The notes beneath the pieces are model-generated. The model was given only the letters and a program-made list of their open reading frames with translations, did no database searches and was not told where the DNA came from. From Alphaproteobacteria bacterium (lineage in GTDB: Bacteria; Pseudomonadota; Alphaproteobacteria; RS24): a DNA stretch of 64,000 bases. Position numbers and translations under genes: made by a program. Shown one piece after another: positions 866-57,710 of the stretch; the stretch's first letter is position 1; each line of letters starts with the position of its first letter. The stretch lies in contig CBFHSX010000004.1 of assembly GCA_965658615.1 (NCBI GenBank), forward strand, positions 5,263 through 69,262, in the 5' to 3' direction.

Positions 866-3523
866 CTATTTCTTTACCGCCTGCGCCAGTGCCGCTTGCG
901 CGGCTGCGAGACGGGCAATCGGCACACGGAAGGGTGAGCAGGAGACATAGTCCAGCCCCATCGACTGACAAAAAGCGATAGAAGCGGGATGCCCGCCATG
1001 CTCGCCACACAGACCGAGTTTCAAATCGGGCTTGACGCTGCGCCCCTTATCGCCGGCCAATTGCATCAACGCGCCGACCCCGTCCTCATCGAGGCGGGCA
1101 AACGGATCGCTATCGAGCAGACCGGCCGACAAATAGGCCGGCAGGAAAGTGCCGCTATCATCGCGGCTCAGGCCAAAAGTGGTCTGCGTCAAATCATTGG
1201 TGCCGAAGGAGAAGAAATCAATCTTTTCCGCCAAACGGTCAGCCAAGAGCGCCGCGCGCGGCACTTCAATCATAGCCCCCAAACGATAGCGGGCACGGTC
1301 AATCCCCGCCGCGTCGGCAATCGGCGCGACGCGGTCGATCATGGCCTGCAATTCGCGCGCGCCGGTAATGAGCGGGAACATGACTTCGACCGTCTGCGCC
1401 GCATCGGCCTCGCCAAGCGCGGCAAAAATCGCCCGCAATTGCATGTCGTAAATTTCAGGCGCGGTGACGGCCAAGCGACTGCCGCGATGGCCCAGCATCG
1501 GATTGCTTTCCGACAGGTTGACAATGCGGGCGCGCAGCGCTTGCGGGCTTTCATCCAGGGCTTTGGCCAGCGGCGAAATATCGTCACCCGCGGCGGGCAA
1601 AAACTCGTGCAAAGGCGGGTCGAGCAGGCGAATGGTCACCGGCAAACCGTTCATAATCTCAAACAGAGCCGCGAAATCGGCTTGCTGGTTCGGCATCAAG
1701 CCATCCAGAGCTTGGCGCCGCGTCTCGCTATCCTGCGCCAATATCATCTGCCGCACCAGCAGGATACGTTGCGGGTCGAAAAACATATGTTCAGTGCGGC
1801 ATAGGCCAATGCCCTCCGCCCCCAGCTTGCGGGCCCGCGCGGCTTCCGGCGGCGTCTCCGCATTGGTACGAATACCCATTGTGCGAATCTCATCGGCCCA
1901 GCCCATCAGCTTGGCAAAAGCACCGGTCAGTTCCGGCTCCAATGTCGGCACTTCGCCGCGCATCACATTGCCTGATGTGCCGTCCACCGTAATCACATCG
2001 CCGGTTTTCAATGCGGTCTTGCCGATGCGCGCAATCTGGTTTTCAAAATCGATTTGCAATTCGCCGGCGCCGGATACGCAAGGCCGCCCCAGACCGCGCG
2101 CCACCACAGCGGCGTGGCTGGTCATACCGCCGCGCGAGGTCAAAATGGCGGCGGCGGCATACATGCCGTGAATATCTTCAGGGCTGGTCTCCATGCGGAC
2201 CAAAATAACCCGTTCGCCATTGGCGGCGCGGGTCTCGGCCTCGTCAGGGGTAAACACAATCACCCCGCTGGCCGCGCCGGGCGAGGCGGGCAGGCCTTTG
2301 GTCAATACATTGGTGCGCGCTTCCGGGTCGAGCGTCGGCAATAAAAGCTGCTCCAACGCTTCCGGCTCAATGCGCGACACGGCCGTGGCGCGGTCGATGA
2401 CGCCCTCAGCTTCCAAATCGATGGCCACTTGCAGCGCCGCTTTGACCGTGCGTTTGGCGGCGCGCGTTTGCAGGATAAACAAGCGACCGTTCTGCACGGT
2501 AAACTCGACATCCTGCATATCGCTGAAATGGGTTTCCAGCCGCGCGAACACTTTTTCCAATTCGGCATAAGTATCGGGCAGGGTTTCTTCCAGAGATAAC
2601 TCTTCCATGCCCGCTCCGAGCCGTGCCGCTTTTGAGACGAAATGCGGTGTGCGGATACCGGCCACCACATCCTCGCCCTGCGCGTTAAGCAAATATTCGC
2701 CATAAACCTCGCGCGCGCCGGTTGACGGGTTGCGGGTAAAAGCAACGCCGGTAGCACTGGTTTGGCCGAGATTGCCGAACACCATAGATTGCACCGTCAC
2801 GGCCGTGCCCCAATCATCGGGGATATTGTGCAAATGCCGATAGGTGCGCGCCCGCGCATTGTCCCAGCTTTTACACACGGCTCCAATCGCCCCCCAAAGC
2901 TGCTCTTGCGGGTCTTGCGGAAACGGCGCGCCGGCCTCTTCTTCAATCATCACGGCAAAGCGGGTGCAAATATCTCGCCAATCATCCGTATCCAAATCGG
3001 CATCCAGCGATAATGCGTTTTCGAATTTATAATCGTCGATAATCTCTTCGAAAAAATCATGCGACACGCCCATCACCACATCGCCATACATTTGCTGGAA
3101 ACGGCGATAACTGTCCCAGACAAAACGCGCATCGCCGGTGCGCTTTGACAGCCCTTCTACCGTCACATCATTGAGGCCGAGATTGAGCACCGTATCCATC
3201 ATGCCCGGCATGGAAGCGCGCGCGCCGGAACGCACCGAGACCAGCAAAGGCCGCTCGGCATCGCCAAGGCGCAAATTCATATTTTCCGACAGGGCCGTCA
3301 AAGCCGCTTCGACCTCGGCTTTCAGCCCATCGGGGAACTGACCGTCATTTTTGGCAAAATGGGTAGAGACTTCCGTTGTCAGCGTAAAGCCGGGCGGTAC
3401 GGGCAGGCCCATGCGGCACATTTCGGCCAGATTGGCACCCTTGCCGCCCAGCAGCGCGCCCATGCCGGCATCGCCATCGGCAAACCCGTCAGCAAAAGCG
3501 TAAACAAGTTTGCGATCGGTCAT
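866..3523 (-). CDS. ppdK: Pyruvate, phosphate dikinase
   Basis: LLGGKGANLAEM, GGMTSHAAVVAR (phospho-His), GIGLCRTEHMF, CGEHGG; ATG 3523 preceded by GGTGA. Confidence 0.98.
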   Translation of the reverse strand: MTDRKLVYAFADGFADGDAGMGALLGGKGANLAEMCRMGLPVPPGFTLTTEVSTHFAKNDGQFPDGLKAEVEAALTALSENMNLRLGDAERPLLVSVRSGARASMPGMMDTVLNLGLNDVTVEGLSKRTGDARFVWDSYRRFQQMYGDVVMGVSHDFFEEIIDDYKFENALSLDADLDTDDWRDICTRFAVMIEEEAGAPFPQDPQEQLWGAIGAVCKSWDNARARTYRHLHNIPDDWGTAVTVQSMVFGNLGQTSATGVAFTRNPSTGAREVYGEYLLNAQGEDVVAGIRTPHFVSKAARLGAGMEELSLEETLPDTYAELEKVFARLETHFSDMQDVEFTVQNGRLFILQTRAAKRTVKAALQVAIDLEAEGVIDRATAVSRIEPEALEQLLLPTLDPEARTNVLTKGLPASPGAASGVIVFTPDEAETRAANGERVILVRMETSPEDIHGMYAAAAILTSRGGMTSHAAVVARGLGRPCVSGAGELQIDFENQIARIGKTALKTGDVITVDGTSGNVMRGEVPTLEPELTGAFAKLMGWADEIRTMGIRTNAETPPEAARARKLGAEGIGLCRTEHMFFDPQRILLVRQMILAQDSETRRQALDGLMPNQQADFAALFEIMNGLPVTIRLLDPPLHEFLPAAGDDISPLAKALDESPQALRARIVNLSESNPMLGHRGSRLAVTAPEIYDMQLRAIFAALGEADAAQTVEVMFPLITGARELQAMIDRVAPIADAAGIDRARYRLGAMIEVPRAALLADRLAEKIDFFSFGTNDLTQTTFGLSRDDSGTFLPAYLSAGLLDSDPFARLDEDGVGALMQLAGDKGRSVKPDLKLGLCGEHGGHPASIAFCQSMGLDYVSCSPFRVPIARLAAAQAALAQAVKK

Positions 3524-34583: not shown

Positions 34584-35069
34584 TTACAGCTGCGCCAGCA
34601 GGTTCTCGGCGCCGCTATCGACCGCTTGACCGGGATTGCTCTCGACATTCAGCGTCTCAATTATGCCGTCGCGGACAATCATTGAATAACGCAGCGAGCG
34701 CGTGCCCATGCCAAAGCCCGAGCCGTCCATGGACAGGCCGAGCTTTTCGGTCAGCTCGCCATTGCCGTCACCGACCATCATGACTTTGCCGCCTGCGCCT
34801 TGCTGCTCGCCCCAAGCGCCCATAACAAAAGCGTCATTGACCGACAGGCAAATAATCGTATCGACACCGGCGGAACGCAATTCCTCGGATTTCTCGATAA
34901 AGCCCGGCAGGTGTTGGTTCGAACAGGTCGGCGTAAACGCGCCCGGCAGGGCGAAAAGGGCGACGGTTTTGCCGTCGAATAATTCGGCGGTGGTAATCGG
35001 TGCCGGACCCGCATCGCTCATATGCATAAGCTGCGCGTCGGGCATTTTATCTCCGGGTTTCACTGTCAT
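34584..35069 (-). CDS. Peroxiredoxin, Prx5/redoxin type
   Basis: LPGAFTPTCSNQHLPGF, CLSVNDAFVMGAW, GMGTRSLRYSM. Confidence 0.95.
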   Translation of the reverse strand: MTVKPGDKMPDAQLMHMSDAGPAPITTAELFDGKTVALFALPGAFTPTCSNQHLPGFIEKSEELRSAGVDTIICLSVNDAFVMGAWGEQQGAGGKVMMVGDGNGELTEKLGLSMDGSGFGMGTRSLRYSMIVRDGIIETLNVESNPGQAVDSGAENLLAQL

Positions 35070-35087: not shown

Positions 35088-35906
35088 TTAATTCGGTCGA
35101 TCCTGCGGCATCAGCCGATGGTCGGTTATGTCAATATCCGCTTCAATGGCGCGCGCGCCGTCGCGGACAGCCAATTTCAATTTACGTCCGATCAGCGGAT
35201 GGTCAAGCTTCGACCATGCCGGCACCTCAATAAGGAAGGAAGCCGGATGCTTGGCAGCGACGCGCGGCGGACCGATAATATCGTGCGGGCCGGGTACGAT
35301 CATCACTTGCGGGTCTTGCAAGTTTTCACCCGTCACCACAACTTGCAGCGACACACCGTCAAAACTAATGCCGCCAATACCAAGACCGGCGCTCGGTTTT
35401 TGGGCTTGCGCGGCCAACATGTCGGCGATGCGCGCGCCATGCGGGCCGGCGCGCAAACGTTTCGTATCGAGCATCAGCCCGGCCTCGAGATCCATCGGGA
35501 TGCAGACCTCACGGCACACGCCAATCAAGCCGGTAAAATTGAGCGTCGCTTTATTGCGGGTAAAGTCTAAGGGAAAGACGAAACCGGCTTTATCTGCATA
35601 ACCGAAATAGCCACCAACCCCATCGTCAAAAAAATGCGGGGCCGGAAAAACCGTCGGCCCGACCGCCAGCGCGTCAGACGCCTCCAGCGTAAATTCGGGC
35701 GCAATGCCGCTGGCGCCGGGGAAGCGCCAATAAGTGTGCCAACCCGGCTTCAACTGCACTTCCAGCGCCGCGTAAAACTTACCATCCACCTCGCCGGCAA
35801 TCAGCCGCCATCGGGCCGGGTCTTTATCAACCCATAGGCTGTCGACGGCGCGCGCCGGGCCAGAGGTCAAGAGGCACAAGGCGAGCATTAACGAAAACAA
35901 TCTCAT
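35088..35906 (-). CDS. Periplasmic DsbD/DsbC-domain disulfide reductase-like protein
   Basis: Signal peptide, GWHTYWRFPGASGIAP, GVCREVCIP; start refined to ATG 35906. Confidence 0.85.
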   Translation of the reverse strand: MRLFSLMLALCLLTSGPARAVDSLWVDKDPARWRLIAGEVDGKFYAALEVQLKPGWHTYWRFPGASGIAPEFTLEASDALAVGPTVFPAPHFFDDGVGGYFGYADKAGFVFPLDFTRNKATLNFTGLIGVCREVCIPMDLEAGLMLDTKRLRAGPHGARIADMLAAQAQKPSAGLGIGGISFDGVSLQVVVTGENLQDPQVMIVPGPHDIIGPPRVAAKHPASFLIEVPAWSKLDHPLIGRKLKLAVRDGARAIEADIDITDHRLMPQDRPN

Positions 35907-35982
35907 GGCGAAAATATAGCCGCTTCGGTGCAATAAAACGAGTAACAAAACCTTATTGTTTCGCACCCGCCAGTTACCTAAC

Positions 35983-36552
35983 ATGATGGCGATGGAGAAC
36001 GGCCATGACACAAATCTGACCGGTCGGTTTTTACTGGCCATGCCCGGCATGGGTGATCCGCGCTTTGAGCGCGGGGTTATTTATATGCTGTCGCATGATG
36101 CAGAAGGCGCCATGGGTTTTATCGTCAACCAACCGGCAGAAGGGCTTACATTGGGCGAGATTGCGCAAAACTTGCCCGAAAATGTCGCTTCGACCGGGTT
36201 GGTCAATCTACCGGTCTATGTGGGCGGGCCGGTCCAAAATGATAGCGGCTTTGTGCTTTATTCAGTCGAAGACGATGATGCAGAAGAACTGCCGGTCGGG
36301 CTGACCCAATCGATGGATATTCTGGTTGAGGCGGCGCATGGGCGCGGCCCCCGCCATATGCGCCTGCTGCTCGGCTATGCCGGTTGGGGGCCGGGCCAGC
36401 TTGAGGGCGAAATTCAGGCCAATGCGTGGCTGATTTGCCCAGCTGATTTGGACGATGTTTTCACCGCCCGACCGGATGAATTATACCAAAAATGCGCCGC
36501 CCGCCTCGGCATTGATTTGGGCCTGCTCAGCCAAGACGGCGGCGAAGCCTAG
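35983..36552 (+). CDS. YqgE/AlgH family protein
   Basis: LLAMPGMGDPRF, GAMGFIVN, GGPV, LGYAGWGPGQLEGEI. Confidence 0.93.
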   Translation: MMAMENGHDTNLTGRFLLAMPGMGDPRFERGVIYMLSHDAEGAMGFIVNQPAEGLTLGEIAQNLPENVASTGLVNLPVYVGGPVQNDSGFVLYSVEDDDAEELPVGLTQSMDILVEAAHGRGPRHMRLLLGYAGWGPGQLEGEIQANAWLICPADLDDVFTARPDELYQKCAARLGIDLGLLSQDGGEA

Positions 36553-37460
36553 CCGCGCTGCTGGCGATCGGGCACAAACACCGCGCCGAGCAAAACGCTG
36601 GCGCAGGTCAGCGTCATGAAAATATGCCCCAATTCGGCCGATAAAAGCCCCGCATAGCCCGGATCGATAACCTGCCATGTCCAAAGCCCGATACTGGTCA
36701 CCAGCCATATATCGGTGACGATAATCACCCGCGTCCAATAATTGCGGTGCATGATTTGCTTGATCACCAAATTGACATGCGCCAGCACACTCATCGCCAC
36801 GCCAATGGCGAAGCTGAAGCGAATAATCGTCAAGCGATTGGCCTGCCAGTCAACAAACATGCCCTCATCGGGCAGCACATCGCGCATCCAAAGACTGGCC
36901 AAAAGCACCATCAAACCGCCACCCATAATGACGGCATATACGGCGCGCCGCGAACGGCGATAAATACCGACCGCGACAGCCAGCACAAAACCGATACTCA
37001 AAAACAAAAGCAATGCGGCATGAAATGTCTGACGCCGTGCCTCAAATGCGGCGTGCCCCTCGGGCGACCATAAATATAAGACCGGCGCCTTATCGACCCC
37101 CAATAGATAAAAACTCTGCACCGCGCCGGCCGGAACCGAGAAACCAAGCTCGCCGGGGCGGCCGGGCTTGGCGGCAAATTCGCGATCATCGGAAGAAAAC
37201 AGACGCAACGCAGCGCGGTTTTGACCCTGCAGCATAAAGGCGGCGACCAAATCGAGCGGCGCCGCGCGGGTAATCAGCAGATCGGTTTCGGTGGAGCCGC
37301 CATTTTGAATCGAAAAGATCGCTCGATCATCCTGCCGGTCACTGAGATAAGGATGCAATTCAAGGACCTGAAAATCCTCGCGCAAGCGCAGCGGGTCAGA
37401 GGCCTGAGCCGGCGCGAGGGCGGCCACCAAAAAACATAAAGCGGCCAGCACCCCCCGCAT
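36549..37460 (-). CDS. 7TMR-DISM-like sensor protein without cytoplasmic output (truncated RgsP-like)
   Basis: Signal peptide, about 125-aa periplasmic domain ending PVLYLWSP, then about 5 TM helices and a stop; ATG overlaps the thrC TAA; convergent with yqgE. Confidence 0.65.
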   Translation of the reverse strand: MRGVLAALCFLVAALAPAQASDPLRLREDFQVLELHPYLSDRQDDRAIFSIQNGGSTETDLLITRAAPLDLVAAFMLQGQNRAALRLFSSDDREFAAKPGRPGELGFSVPAGAVQSFYLLGVDKAPVLYLWSPEGHAAFEARRQTFHAALLLFLSIGFVLAVAVGIYRRSRRAVYAVIMGGGLMVLLASLWMRDVLPDEGMFVDWQANRLTIIRFSFAIGVAMSVLAHVNLVIKQIMHRNYWTRVIIVTDIWLVTSIGLWTWQVIDPGYAGLLSAELGHIFMTLTCASVLLGAVFVPDRQQRG

Positions 37461-38857
37461 TAGCCGATCCGGGATTTTTCGCGAATGAGGTTTTCAACTG
37501 CCAGCAAATCATTCGGCGCTTGGCTGAAGCGCTCGGGCAGGTCCATCATATCGGTTACGCGCTGCGGTGTGTCGGGCGTCGTGCCATAGGCTTGCTCGAC
37601 CGCTTTCGGGAATTTCGCCGGATGCGCCGTCGCCAATGTCACCATCGGCACATCATCAGCCAGCACGGCGCGTTCAGCCGCGCCGACACCGACCGCGCTA
37701 TGCGGGTCGATTTGGAAACCGCAATCAGCACTGGTTTCCTGCATAATTTTAATCGTTTCGTCTTGGTCAATACGTTCGGCGGCAAACAGCGCGCGCATGA
37801 GTTGCAATTCGCCCTCGCTCATTTCAAAACGACCGCTTTGCGCCAGATTGCCCATCAGCCCGCGCACCCGCGTCGCATCGCGACCAGTCAATTCAAACAA
37901 AAGCCGCTCGAAATTGCTCGACACCTGAATATCCATAGACGGGCTGGAAGTGGCAACCACCGTGCCCGTTTCATACACGCCACTGGCCAATGTGCGGGCC
38001 AGAATATCGTTCACATTGGTGGCGATCATTAATTGTGCGATCGGCAAGCCCATTTGCGCCGCCACATAGCCGGCAAAAATATCGCCGAAATTACCGGTCG
38101 GCACTGAATAGGCAACCGGCTGTTCGGGCGCGCCCAGCCTGGCGGCGGAGGTGAAGTAATAGGTAATTTGCGCCATCACCCGCGCCCAATTGATCGAATT
38201 GACCCCGGCCAAAGACATTTCCTGACGAAACGGCATATCGTTAAACATGGATTTGACCAGTGCCTGACAATCGTCAAATGTGCCGTCAATCGCCAGCGTA
38301 TGCACATTGGCATCGGTCGGCGTGGTCATTTGTTTGCGCTGCACATCCGAGACGCGGCCATCGGGAAACAGGATAAACACATCAACCGCTTCGCGCCCCC
38401 GAAACGCCTCAATCGCCGCACCGCCCGTATCGCCTGAGGTCGCCCCGATAATGGTCGCGCGCTCACCACGACGGATCAGCGCGTCATCCATCAGGCGCGC
38501 CAGCAATTGCATGGCGACGTCTTTAAAAGCCAGCGTCGGGCCGTGATATAATTCGAGAAAATACTGCCCCTCGCCCAATTGGCTGAGCGGGGCAATCTCC
38601 TCACGGGTAAAGCCGGCATAGGCTTCATCGACCATGGCTTCCAGCCGGTCGCGCGGCACATCATCGCCCATAAAAGGATGCAGCACCTCGACTGCGACAC
38701 GCTGAAACGACGCGCCTTGAAAGCTTTTCAGCATGGCTTCAGTCAGGCGCGGCCAGCTTTCGGGCACATAAAGACCGCCATCGGAAGCGAGGCCGGCGAG
38801 CAGCGCATCCTCAAAACTCAATTCCGGCGCTTGGCCGCGGGTCGATAAATATCTCAC
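37460..38857 (-). CDS. thrC: Threonine synthase
   Basis: MRYLSTRG, GLASDGGLYVP, PLP-Lys HGPTLAFKD, ATSGDTG, NSINWAR, VPTGNFGD. Confidence 0.98.
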   Translation of the reverse strand: MRYLSTRGQAPELSFEDALLAGLASDGGLYVPESWPRLTEAMLKSFQGASFQRVAVEVLHPFMGDDVPRDRLEAMVDEAYAGFTREEIAPLSQLGEGQYFLELYHGPTLAFKDVAMQLLARLMDDALIRRGERATIIGATSGDTGGAAIEAFRGREAVDVFILFPDGRVSDVQRKQMTTPTDANVHTLAIDGTFDDCQALVKSMFNDMPFRQEMSLAGVNSINWARVMAQITYYFTSAARLGAPEQPVAYSVPTGNFGDIFAGYVAAQMGLPIAQLMIATNVNDILARTLASGVYETGTVVATSSPSMDIQVSSNFERLLFELTGRDATRVRGLMGNLAQSGRFEMSEGELQLMRALFAAERIDQDETIKIMQETSADCGFQIDPHSAVGVGAAERAVLADDVPMVTLATAHPAKFPKAVEQAYGTTPDTPQRVTDMMDLPERFSQAPNDLLAVENLIREKSRIG

Positions 38858-39615
38858 CGGTTTTCATCTCCTTGGCCGTGCGAGGCCGGTTTGTGGCGGT
38901 TTTTCCAGAGACGGATGTGCCACAGACCGGAAATAATCACAAGCACTATGGCAAGTCCGAACCATGTGCCGGCATATTGCAAATGATTATTGGCAATCTT
39001 CATGCGCGTTTGTCCGCCGCGCGGCCAGTGTTTGCCCGGCGCGGCGCTCTCGGCCAGAAACACCGGCAAATCCATGCGCCAATAGTGACCTATGGCTTTG
39101 GGGTCGCGAACATAAACCAGCCCCTCGGTCGGCTTATCGGCATTGTCGAAACGCCCGCGCCGGTCAGGCCAGCGCAAAATGACATCGAGATTATGCACGC
39201 CATCGGGGTTGGCATCGGGCGTATCTTTCAGCCGCGCCGGAACAAAACCGCGATCGAGCAATAAGGGCGTACCATCGCTCAGCACAAAGGGAACCAAAAC
39301 GTGATAGCCCGCCGCATCGCGTCGCGGCAAACCCTTCGGCTTGTTTTCAATTTGCGTGAACCAGAACAGCTGTTCGCGGCCATAGCGCCCGCGCAAAGTG
39401 GCGCGGCGATACTCGTCATCCTGTTTGCTGAGCGCTTGAATATCCGCCGCTTCGGCAATGGTGAAAGCGGGAGCGGCTTGCCGCGCCGCGATGCGTGCCA
39501 GAAGCTCTTGCTTCCACGAAAGCCTCTCGACCTGCCAAAACCCCAAAGCCAGCAAAGCGGCCAGCATGATGGCGGTCAAAAAAGCGGGCAAAAAGAAACG
39601 CAGGGAATAAGACAT
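38854..39615 (-). CDS. surf1: SURF1/Shy1 cytochrome oxidase assembly protein
   Basis: LGFWQVERLSWK, LLDRGFVP, NNHLQYAGTWFGLA. Confidence 0.93.
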   Translation of the reverse strand: MSYSLRFFLPAFLTAIMLAALLALGFWQVERLSWKQELLARIAARQAAPAFTIAEAADIQALSKQDDEYRRATLRGRYGREQLFWFTQIENKPKGLPRRDAAGYHVLVPFVLSDGTPLLLDRGFVPARLKDTPDANPDGVHNLDVILRWPDRRGRFDNADKPTEGLVYVRDPKAIGHYWRMDLPVFLAESAAPGKHWPRGGQTRMKIANNHLQYAGTWFGLAIVLVIISGLWHIRLWKNRHKPASHGQGDENR

Positions 39616-55877: not shown

Positions 55878-56889
55878 GCCGCGTTTTTGGCAGGGCAAAA
55901 ACCATCCGCTGAGCCTCGCTTTGACACCGCTCAGTTGGCTATATGGTGGGCTGGAAGCACTGCGCCGCAAATTCTCACAGCCCCAACACCCGGGCAAGCC
56001 TGTCATTTGCATCGGCAATTTGACCGCCGGCGGGGCCGGCAAAACGCCGACTGTCGAATGGCTCATGGCCCAATTGCGAACCAATGGCCTGACACCTGCC
56101 ATACTGTCACGCGGTTATGGGGGCACTGAAAAAGGTCCGCTTCGGGTCGACACAAAAATTCATGACGCCACACAAGTCGGCGACGAACCGCTTATGCTGG
56201 CGCAGGACACACCCGTCTATATCGGCGCCGACCGGATGGCCAGCCTGCGCCTCGCCGTGCACGACGGGCATGATGTGTTGGTCAAGGATGACGGGTTTCA
56301 AAACCCCGCTTTAGCGCATCATTTCAATCTGATTGTCGTCGACGGTGCCAGCGGGCTGGGCAATGGACGGCTTTTGCCGGCCGGGCCACTGCGCCAAAGG
56401 CTTGCCGTCGGCATCGGCAAGCTCGATGCGCTGCTGGTTATTGGCGCGCCCACCCACGCATCGCTGCCACCCTTGCGCGCCGCGCTCGATAAAATCGGCA
56501 AACCGGTTTTCACCGCCGCCATTGCCGCAACCCAATTGGGCAGCGGGCCGGTGCACGCTTTTTGCGGCATTGCCAAACCGGAAAAATTTCGGGCCAGCCT
56601 TGCGGCGCAGGGCTATGAGGTCAAAGCGATGAGTGCTTTTGCCGACCACCATAATTTCACCGAGGCCGAAGCGGCCAAATTGCTGGACAGTAAATTGCCC
56701 CTCATCACCACGCAAAAAGACATGGCGCGCTTGCACGGGGCTGCGGCCAATTCGGCGCGTGGGCGTTTGGCAGCGCGCGCCGCCACCCTACCCATCGCCC
56801 TGACGATTGACGATGAAGCGGCTTTGGTCGCGTTGATAAAATCCGCTTTGGCCGAAAAACAGGCCAATCAGCTTTATAAATCCTATTGA
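55867..56889 (+). CDS. lpxK: Tetraacyldisaccharide 4'-kinase
   Basis: IGNLTAGGAGKTP, LSRGYGG, GDEPLML, DDGFQN, LLPAGPLR, FADHH. Confidence 0.96.
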   Translation: MMAEPRFWQGKNHPLSLALTPLSWLYGGLEALRRKFSQPQHPGKPVICIGNLTAGGAGKTPTVEWLMAQLRTNGLTPAILSRGYGGTEKGPLRVDTKIHDATQVGDEPLMLAQDTPVYIGADRMASLRLAVHDGHDVLVKDDGFQNPALAHHFNLIVVDGASGLGNGRLLPAGPLRQRLAVGIGKLDALLVIGAPTHASLPPLRAALDKIGKPVFTAAIAATQLGSGPVHAFCGIAKPEKFRASLAAQGYEVKAMSAFADHHNFTEAEAAKLLDSKLPLITTQKDMARLHGAAANSARGRLAARAATLPIALTIDDEAALVALIKSALAEKQANQLYKSY

Positions 56890-57710
56890 GTGTTTTCAGG
56901 CGCGGCGCTGACAACCAGCGCCGGGTCGATACGTTGGCCGCGCCAGAACATGCGCCAGTCGAGATGCGGCCCGGTCGAACGGCCGGTTGAGCCGACTGTG
57001 GCGATCATATCCCCCGCCTTCACCTCGTCACCGACCTCAACCTCGAGCGTGTCGAGATGCATATAGGCTGAGGTCAGTTTCAGCCCGTGATCGATGAAAA
57101 TCAGCCCGCCCTCAAAATACATATCCGGCTCGGCCAATGTGACCTTGCCGGGGGCCGGGGCGATGACCTTTGTGCCGCGCGGCGCGGCAATATCAATTCC
57201 GAAATGCGGGCGGCGCGGCTCGCCATTATAAAAACGCTGACTGCCATAAACACCGCTAATGCGGCCTTTCACGGGCCAGATAAAATCCTCGATGAAATCG
57301 GCGCGCCGCGAGTCAATCGCGCGCGCCGCGCGTTTCAATTTGCCACCCCGAATGATACGCGGCAGCGCTTCCTCGGGCGGATTGACCATGGCGGGCGGCA
57401 GGCCGTCAATGCGCTGAATGTTATAGCTGCGCTTTTCGAGCTGCACCGGCACGGTGCGCGCCTTGCCATTGCGGGTGAATATAATCTCATGCGCCAGCTT
57501 GGCATCGCGGCCAAAACCCAGAACGGTGTGGCCTTTTACGACCGGCAGCGTCTCGCCATTCAACGCAATTTGCGTGCCCTTGGTCAGCGCCAACACCACC
57601 AGACCACCTTGCGTAAACGCGCCGGTTGCGCCGCGCACATAATCTTGCGGCAGCTCCAGCGCATTTGCCGGCGCTATGAAGAGCAGCAAGGCCAGCGCGA
57701 TTTTATGCAT
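56883..57710 (-). CDS. M23 family metallopeptidase
   Basis: Signal peptide; HFGID, YMHLD, TGRSTGPHLDW. Confidence 0.92.
   Translation of the reverse strand: MHKIALALLLFIAPANALELPQDYVRGATGAFTQGGLVVLALTKGTQIALNGETLPVVKGHTVLGFGRDAKLAHEIIFTRNGKARTVPVQLEKRSYNIQRIDGLPPAMVNPPEEALPRIIRGGKLKRAARAIDSRRADFIEDFIWPVKGRISGVYGSQRFYNGEPRRPHFGIDIAAPRGTKVIAPAPGKVTLAEPDMYFEGGLIFIDHGLKLTSAYMHLDTLEVEVGDEVKAGDMIATVGSTGRSTGPHLDWRMFWRGQRIDPALVVSAAPENTQ

Follow-up and report, generated by a model that had tools for sequence, protein, structure and literature searches.

Receptors of the 7TMR-DISM group (PF07695/PF07696), which include RetS, LadS and NicD of Pseudomonas aeruginosa, take part of their name from an intracellular signalling module. 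RgsP (SMc00074 in S. meliloti; Atu0784 in A. tumefaciens; RHE_CH00976 in R. etli) consists of 7TMR-DISMED2 and 7TMR-DISM_7TM domains together with PAS, GGDEF and EAL, and is essential in the polarly growing Rhizobiales, which lack MreB (PMC6107284). Its essential function requires the N-terminal domains and PAS, while GGDEF, EAL and cyclic di-GMP (c-di-GMP) are dispensable; RgsP without GGDEF and EAL retains binding to RgsM, a protein of 646 residues with a transmembrane (TM) anchor at residues 32–57 and an M23 domain at residues 508–606 (PMC6107284). Here we describe mini-RgsP, a protein of 303 residues encoded on the minus strand at positions 36549–37460 of a window of 64,000 nucleotides (contig CBFHSX010000004.1 of assembly GCA_965658615.1; all coordinates are those of the window unless another locus is named). 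The source organism is a small-genome marine bacterium of the PS1 clade, and its genome (G000) is 1.85 Mb in size and 100% complete. We consider it probable that mini-RgsP is a natural minimal form of the RgsP-type 7TMR-DISM receptor of Alphaproteobacteria and its positional orthologue, and that it would have a function in the cell envelope.

The proteins encoded in the window were used as tblastn queries, and the whole ten-gene block was found to be common to genomes bearing mini-RgsP and genomes bearing an RgsP-like gene. The order is ispH-thrB-rnhA-prx-dsbDN-yqgE-X-(GNAT/M16)-thrC-surf1-ctaE, where X is either mini-RgsP or the RgsP-like gene. In many alphaproteobacterial families, X encodes a 7TM/PAS/GGDEF/EAL protein of approximately 900–1050 residues, located downstream of thrC and convergent to yqgE. 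In 18 of the 19 assessable genomes, which come from at least seven families, yqgE/AlgH directly adjoins the RgsP-like gene and converges on it; the sole exception is a contig break. The absence of MreB served as the marker for a link to the named RgsP: one family (f73, comprising G374, G270 and G128, all 100% complete) has no MreB, and its RgsP-like proteins are 987–1050 residues long. The protein of 987 residues from G270 contains 7TMR-DISMED2 (22.6 bits, with a cut-off of 22), 7TMR-DISM_7TM, PAS_3, GGDEF and EAL, which is the architecture described in PMC6107284, and its gene lies in the arrangement thrC-GNAT-X-><-AlgH-DsbD_N. In another mini-bearing genome, G013, the order is thrC-GNAT-mini-yqgE, a GNAT gene separating thrC from the mini gene in precisely the way seen in the genomes with the order thrC-GNAT-RgsP-yqgE. 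These arrangements show mini-RgsP to be a positional orthologue of RgsP-type genes; like RgsP, it lies downstream of thrC, converges on yqgE/algH and is close to DsbD_N and peroxiredoxin. A sequence-only reading made before this analysis had given a peroxiredoxin/DsbD-like/yqgE/thrC neighbourhood for RgsP, and this was correct, as judged by the same 18 of 19 genomes, one of which is in the MreB-less family.

The relationship is also visible in comparisons of sequence profiles. A hidden Markov model (HMM) of the mini family, searched against 200 alphaproteobacterial genomes, matched, besides those of the PS1 clade, two open reading frames (ORFs) of about 1010 residues (E 1e-6 and 6e-5). Each has a weak match to 7TMR-DISM_7TM together with PAS_3, GGDEF and EAL, and the gene order around each is thrC-(M16)-GNAT-X-><-AlgH. 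The RgsP-like reference set consisted of 11 collected N-termini, and a later set held 12 sequences; a query spanning the PAS domain drew many PAS matches in one genome search, and these were filtered by query coverage. A word-index search using an RgsP-like N-terminus was empty. Using hhalign, the mini family aligned with the RgsP-like N-termini at a probability of 98.6% (E 8.5e-16) over 256 columns, residues 13–275 of mini-RgsP corresponding to residues 31–320, and with the 12 sequences at 98.7% (E 3e-16). When the target was restricted to the three MreB-less-family proteins, the match was 95.6% (E 1e-8) and extended over the whole periplasmic domain. The RgsP-like N-termini match bona fide DISMED2+7TM receptors at 99.1% (E 1e-18), and the mini family matches the same receptors at 92.3% (E 5.5e-7). 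The alignment between mini-RgsP and the RgsP-like proteins is collinear from the signal peptide through TM5. There are seven hydrophobic spans in the relatives, followed by PAS, GGDEF and EAL, and five in mini-RgsP; TM6, TM7, PAS, GGDEF and EAL are therefore missing from mini-RgsP, which is 303 residues long compared to approximately 950–1050 for RgsP. We regard the homology of the periplasmic domain and TM1–TM5 to the RgsP-type N-terminus as real at the level of profiles, the only level at which it can be seen. The earlier description of an RgsP-type N-terminus stripped of its output domains agrees with the matches of 98.6–98.7%, to which the loss of two TM helices should be added.

A number of observations weigh against this interpretation. 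Neither Pfam (hmmscan, E ≤ 1) nor NCBIfam gave a match for mini-RgsP or for 31 of its homologues, and the 7TMR-DISMED2 model (PF07696) thus recognised none of them. Sequence searches of the PDB with mini-RgsP and its family gave no relevant match. Foldseek comparison of the AlphaFold2 model with the PDB returned, at E > 3e-3, nothing but generic jelly-rolls (collagen-binding/PPC domain, carbohydrate-binding module, haemagglutinin head); the top 50 included none of the DISMED2 structures that have been solved (3jyb, 2xbz and 9jpe). The comparison set is made up of syntenic RgsP-like proteins, and it is architecture, synteny and the absence of MreB that suggest the link to the named RgsP of S. 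meliloti. In S. meliloti, deletion of PAS abolishes complementation, yet mini-RgsP has no PAS and lacks two TM helices, and the loss of PAS may mean that its function has shifted from that of RgsP. Mini-RgsP also diverges faster than its neighbours: the protein of G013, a genome from another genus of the same family, is 25% identical, compared to 62% for thrC and 77% for peroxiredoxin. Both G000 and most genomes with an RgsP-like gene have MreB, so that a role in polar growth is not simply transferable. Finally, an RNA sequencing run containing the mini-RgsP locus was sought and none was found.

Some of these results could be explained if an unrelated, lineage-specific membrane protein had displaced RgsP at the locus, in which case the profile similarity would reflect a generic β-sandwich and TM composition. 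There is no direct Pfam match, pairwise BLAST of mini-RgsP against RgsP-like proteins gave no match, the hhalign identities are just 12–16%, and profile scores can be inflated by TM regions. However, the best-supported part of the alignment is the soluble periplasmic domain, with a shared (V/I)P(A/P)...YLW-PE motif; the alignment runs collinearly as far as TM5; three independent target profiles score 92–99%; and the position, orientation and neighbours are the same, including the GNAT gene in G013. We therefore consider displacement decidedly unlikely.

We note that genuine RgsP-type proteins (L066 7039–10002, L030 7854–10877 and L029 7847–10903) are themselves near or below the Pfam gathering scores, with 20–29 bits as against cut-offs of 22 for 7TMR-DISMED2 and 29 for 7TMR-DISM_7TM, and too few members of this subfamily will therefore be counted in any census that relies on Pfam. 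PF07696 and PF07695 are absent from the PS1 order, PF07695 having no match in the G000 genome, which is uninformative because these models only just pick up even true RgsP-like proteins. The DISMED2/7TM relationship proposed for mini-RgsP from sequence depends on the method: it was negative with the Pfam HMM and in the Foldseek top 50, and positive in the profile–profile comparison (92.3%). The DISMED2/7TM/GGDEF/EAL proteins that PF07696 detected in the 200-genome scan (G253, G107 and G242) lie at loci without thrC or yqgE, and were rejected as unrelated paralogues.

The short form is found throughout the mini family. A word-indexed search with mini-RgsP found 72 clusters, in which every member is 186–329 residues long. 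An exhaustive HMMER scan, which covered 1.84 billion representatives with no length filter, found 36 proteins of at most 356 residues, with identities down to 25%. The approximately 100 cluster representatives from the two scans are all about 280–356 residues long, and there is no long form among them. All full-length members stop at the same point, which is FVPDR plus a few residues, and the motifs FxIQN, LRLFSSDDxEF and YLWSP in the periplasmic domain and RRSRRA and NRNYWTRVII in the loops are invariant across the family alignment. The related loci belong to PS1-clade/Parvibaculaceae metagenome-assembled genomes, and the order ctaE-surf1-thrC-mini-yqgE-DsbD_N-prx-rnhA-thrB-ispH is kept in these relatives. 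The gene, its junctions and its length (approximately 300–320 residues) recur across independent Tara, Logan, ENA and JGI assemblies, which excludes a misassembly, including one at the yqgE junction, a concern raised when the locus was first described. Two variants were observed within the family: the mini protein of G013 (L031 9077–10036) has no RRSRRA motif, and one distant lineage (L062 6001–7700, on a 1.5-Mb contig) has no yqgE/algH, so that the next gene after the mini gene, on the same strand, is DsbD_N.

In a comparison with the closest relative (93% amino acid identity, dS approximately 0.4), the ratio of nonsynonymous to synonymous substitution rates (dN/dS) of mini-RgsP is 0.073 using NG86 and 0.093 using YN00. 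The values for its neighbours in the same comparison are 0.06 for yqgE, 0.10 for DsbD_N and 0.03 for prx. Mini-RgsP is therefore under strong purifying selection, comparable to that on neighbouring genes. This bears on the suggestion that the gene is a decaying remnant, that is, a pseudogene or a dispensable leftover of RgsP after c-di-GMP signalling was lost. Such a suggestion would fit with the streamlined genomes of 1.2–2.1 Mb without GGDEF and EAL, and with the divergence of the mini protein, which outpaces that of its neighbours. It does not fit with a dN/dS of 0.07–0.09 at unsaturated dS, with a length and end point that are constant over about 100 clusters at identities down to 25%, with the invariant periplasmic and loop motifs, or with the translational coupling to thrC; and a streamlined genome would be expected to drop a useless gene of 0.9 kb. 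We consider decay very improbable indeed, and the earlier view that the gene is not a pseudogene is borne out by the dN/dS, the fixed end point and the lack of a split gene.

The structure of mini-RgsP was predicted using AlphaFold2 on the basis of 23 homologues, with a mean predicted local distance difference test score (pLDDT) of 83.6 and a predicted template modelling score (pTM) of 0.76. The model has an N-terminal signal helix at residues 2–14, a β-sandwich at residues 24–131, and five long helices at residues 133–168, 171–190, 209–234, 241–265 and 271–294, and the hydropathy is in agreement with this five-helix layout. The signal peptide is predicted to comprise residues 1–20 (37401–37460, minus strand), on the basis of the model, the hydropathy and an A-x-A motif followed by D22, which is invariant in the alignment; it ends in LAPAQA and is followed by SDPLRL. 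The periplasmic β-sandwich (residues ~21–135, 37056–37400, minus strand), which contains the three periplasmic motifs, aligns with both the RgsP-like periplasmic domain and DISMED2. The five TM helices (residues ~136–296, 36573–37055, minus strand), as defined by the model, hydropathy and hhalign, include the conserved cytoplasmic loops. They are followed by FVPDRQQRG, a short tail in the cytoplasm, and then by the stop codon (tail and stop, 36549–36572, minus strand; from the ORF and the family alignment). The C-terminal end is 7 residues past TM5, and there is no intracellular signalling module of any kind, such as a kinase, GGDEF/EAL or PAS. Like the 7TMR-DISM receptors, mini-RgsP has a jelly-roll-type extracytoplasmic domain at the N-terminus, directly before a polytopic helix bundle; unlike them, it is below every Pfam threshold and has five helices and none of the signalling modules from which the group is named. 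Since the N-terminus is outside and there are five spans, the C-terminus is cytoplasmic, and the RRSRRA loop that joins TM1 to TM2, being strongly basic, is consistent with this topology.

At its upstream end, the gene overlaps thrC by 1 nt in a minus-strand TAATG, where the thrC stop (37462–37460) meets the mini-RgsP ATG (37460–37458). At its downstream end, the mini-RgsP stop (36549–36551, minus strand) and the yqgE stop (36550–36552, plus strand) share a CTAG at 36549–36552, which leaves no room for a downstream domain remnant. The sequence-only reading had given an intact ORF of 303 residues with a signal peptide, a periplasmic domain, about five TM helices and these two overlaps, all of which stand according to the sequence, AlphaFold2 and hydropathy. 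It had also stated that there is no downstream remnant, in agreement with the shared stop and with a tblastn search of G000 that found no fragment.

The distribution of these proteins suggests how mini-RgsP may have arisen. The ancestor of the PS1-clade order would have had a DISMED2-like/7 TM/PAS/GGDEF/EAL protein of approximately 1000 residues, which was cut to the signal peptide, the periplasmic domain and TM1–TM5; a cut after TM5 means that the C-terminus still ends in the cytoplasm. Mini-RgsP would then be an inner-membrane envelope factor, either a scaffold or a regulator, without second-messenger chemistry. The target of its periplasmic jelly-roll domain may be a partner protein or a ligand of cell-wall or glycan type, and the helix bundle, with its conserved RRSRRA, NRNYWTR and FVPDR segments, may anchor this interaction or relay it to other membrane proteins. 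The likeliest partner would be an RgsM-like, membrane-anchored M23 peptidase encoded elsewhere in G000.

The cytoplasmic loops, which are conserved specifically within the family, hint at a new interface on the cytoplasmic face. One could go further and propose that mini-RgsP is still a sensor rather than a passive scaffold, with the five-helix module signalling via a cytoplasmic partner that has its own gene (for example, a kinase or some other membrane protein) and docks at the RRSRRA/NRNYWTR loops. Outside the periplasmic domain, conservation is indeed highest in these two loops and in FVPDR at the C-terminus, none of which is shared with the RgsP-like proteins, suggesting that a cytoplasmic interface was newly acquired. 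On the other hand, no candidate partner was found, the conserved neighbours being housekeeping genes, and the G013 protein does without RRSRRA. We regard signalling of this kind as rather unlikely, and prefer a minimised envelope factor.

The loss of the output domains from mini-RgsP is accompanied by their loss from the genome. No GGDEF domain was found in the 1.85-Mb G000 genome, which was the genome searched for GGDEF, and no EAL domain was found in any of the eight PS1-family genomes tested (G000, G051, G054, G003, G005, G020, G024 and G013). From EAL in the eight genomes and GGDEF in G000, it seems that the PS1 lineage, whose genomes are streamlined to 1.2–2.1 Mb, is entirely without c-di-GMP metabolism. 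When 12 full-length RgsP-like proteins were searched against G000 using tblastn, no PAS, GGDEF or EAL fragment was found, all hits having E > 0.29; there is therefore no split PAS-GGDEF-EAL gene elsewhere in the genome, a possibility that had been suggested for checking. The c-di-GMP output is dispensable in RgsP, and a natural form without output fits with this. The occurrence of a periplasmic domain plus five helices in genomes without GGDEF/EAL argues that the conserved job of these proteins sits in the envelope, and presents a clear case of genome streamlining that prunes a receptor of several domains yet keeps the gene. Growth of the Rhizobiales requires RgsP, and the mini form, which has been kept by selection, offers a minimal unit for structural and interaction work.

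MreB is present in G000, in all eight other PS1-order genomes tested, and in most genomes bearing a full-length RgsP-like gene. MreB and the other Rgs proteins have been reported to be mutually exclusive (PMC7327166). This exclusion does not extend to the RgsP-type gene, which is not confined to MreB-less polar growers. The host of mini-RgsP, unlike that of RgsP, has MreB and no c-di-GMP enzymes. As MreB is present, a polar-growth role for mini-RgsP is unlikely, and a role in general peptidoglycan remodelling or division would be likelier than one in unipolar growth. The RgsP-like proteins of MreB-containing Alphaproteobacteria are positional orthologues of mini-RgsP and, in profile comparisons, the closest sequences to the mini family, but they are full-length with their c-di-GMP domains intact, and they do not share its distinct conserved cytoplasmic loops. 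Since RgsP-type genes are common at this locus in MreB-containing Alphaproteobacteria, the question of their function is wider than polar growth. As a separate observation, a full-length RgsP-like gene that converges on yqgE is common among Alphaproteobacteria with MreB, in at least nine families (L029, L030, L035, L036, L056 and L039), in genomes that include G194, G224, G400, G430, G060 and G316 among others.

Each of the MreB-less (f73) genomes has exactly one M23 ORF of 674–694 residues. The RgsM candidates in G270 (664 residues) and G374 (689 residues) have an RgsM-like layout. Their reciprocal best hit in G000 is outside the window, on contig C28 (~906–2327, plus strand), and is a TM-anchored protein of 472 residues with a C-terminal M23 domain. 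It is 39–44% identical to the candidates over 240–280 residues (39% over 279 residues for the 664-residue candidate from G270), and the similarity reaches well upstream of the M23 domain. It is approximately 190 residues shorter than the 664-residue candidate, the difference lying in the periplasmic region, and it may have been trimmed along with mini-RgsP. The genome bearing mini-RgsP thus appears to resemble the RgsP system in encoding an RgsM-like M23 peptidase, albeit a shortened one, and the question raised earlier, whether an rgsM gene lies elsewhere in the genome, has a candidate answer in this protein. G270 has four M23 proteins, each with a one-to-one counterpart among the five of G000; the fifth, left without a partner, is the M23 protein of the window. 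The latter, a 311-residue open frame with its M23 domain at 56922–57209 on the minus strand, is not RgsM-like. It had been judged not to be RgsM when first noticed (at 56883), and as the reciprocal best hit of the candidates is the gene on contig C28, it is rejected as a one-to-one orthologue.

A broader proposal, which we put forward tentatively and consider possible rather than probable, is that RgsP and RgsM form an ancient, c-di-GMP-independent module for peptidoglycan remodelling in the Alphaproteobacteria, which predates unipolar growth and coexists with MreB. The PS1 pair, namely a DISMED2-like domain on five helices and a shortened M23 protein, would then be the irreducible core of the module, and PAS, GGDEF and EAL would be regulatory additions. 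If this were true, five helices would suffice for a 7TMR-DISM bundle to fold and function, and the new cytoplasmic loops would be its sole “output”.

The neighbouring genes were assigned using Pfam and NCBIfam. thrC (threonine synthase; 37460–38857, minus strand) is immediately upstream of the mini-RgsP gene and translationally coupled to it, and surf1 (38854–39615, minus strand) precedes thrC in the same co-oriented string, ctaE-surf1-thrC-mini. yqgE/algH (DUF179; 35956–36552, plus strand) is convergent with the mini gene. The other members of the conserved block on this side are a peroxiredoxin (34584–35069, minus strand), which was assigned from Pfam hits on its homologues, and a DsbD_N-like exported protein (35088–36050, minus strand). 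The longest ORF of the latter runs approximately 95 nt into the start region of yqgE. The true start is probably near 35900, at a Met before the signal peptide, which would match the gene calls in relatives (259–301 residues).

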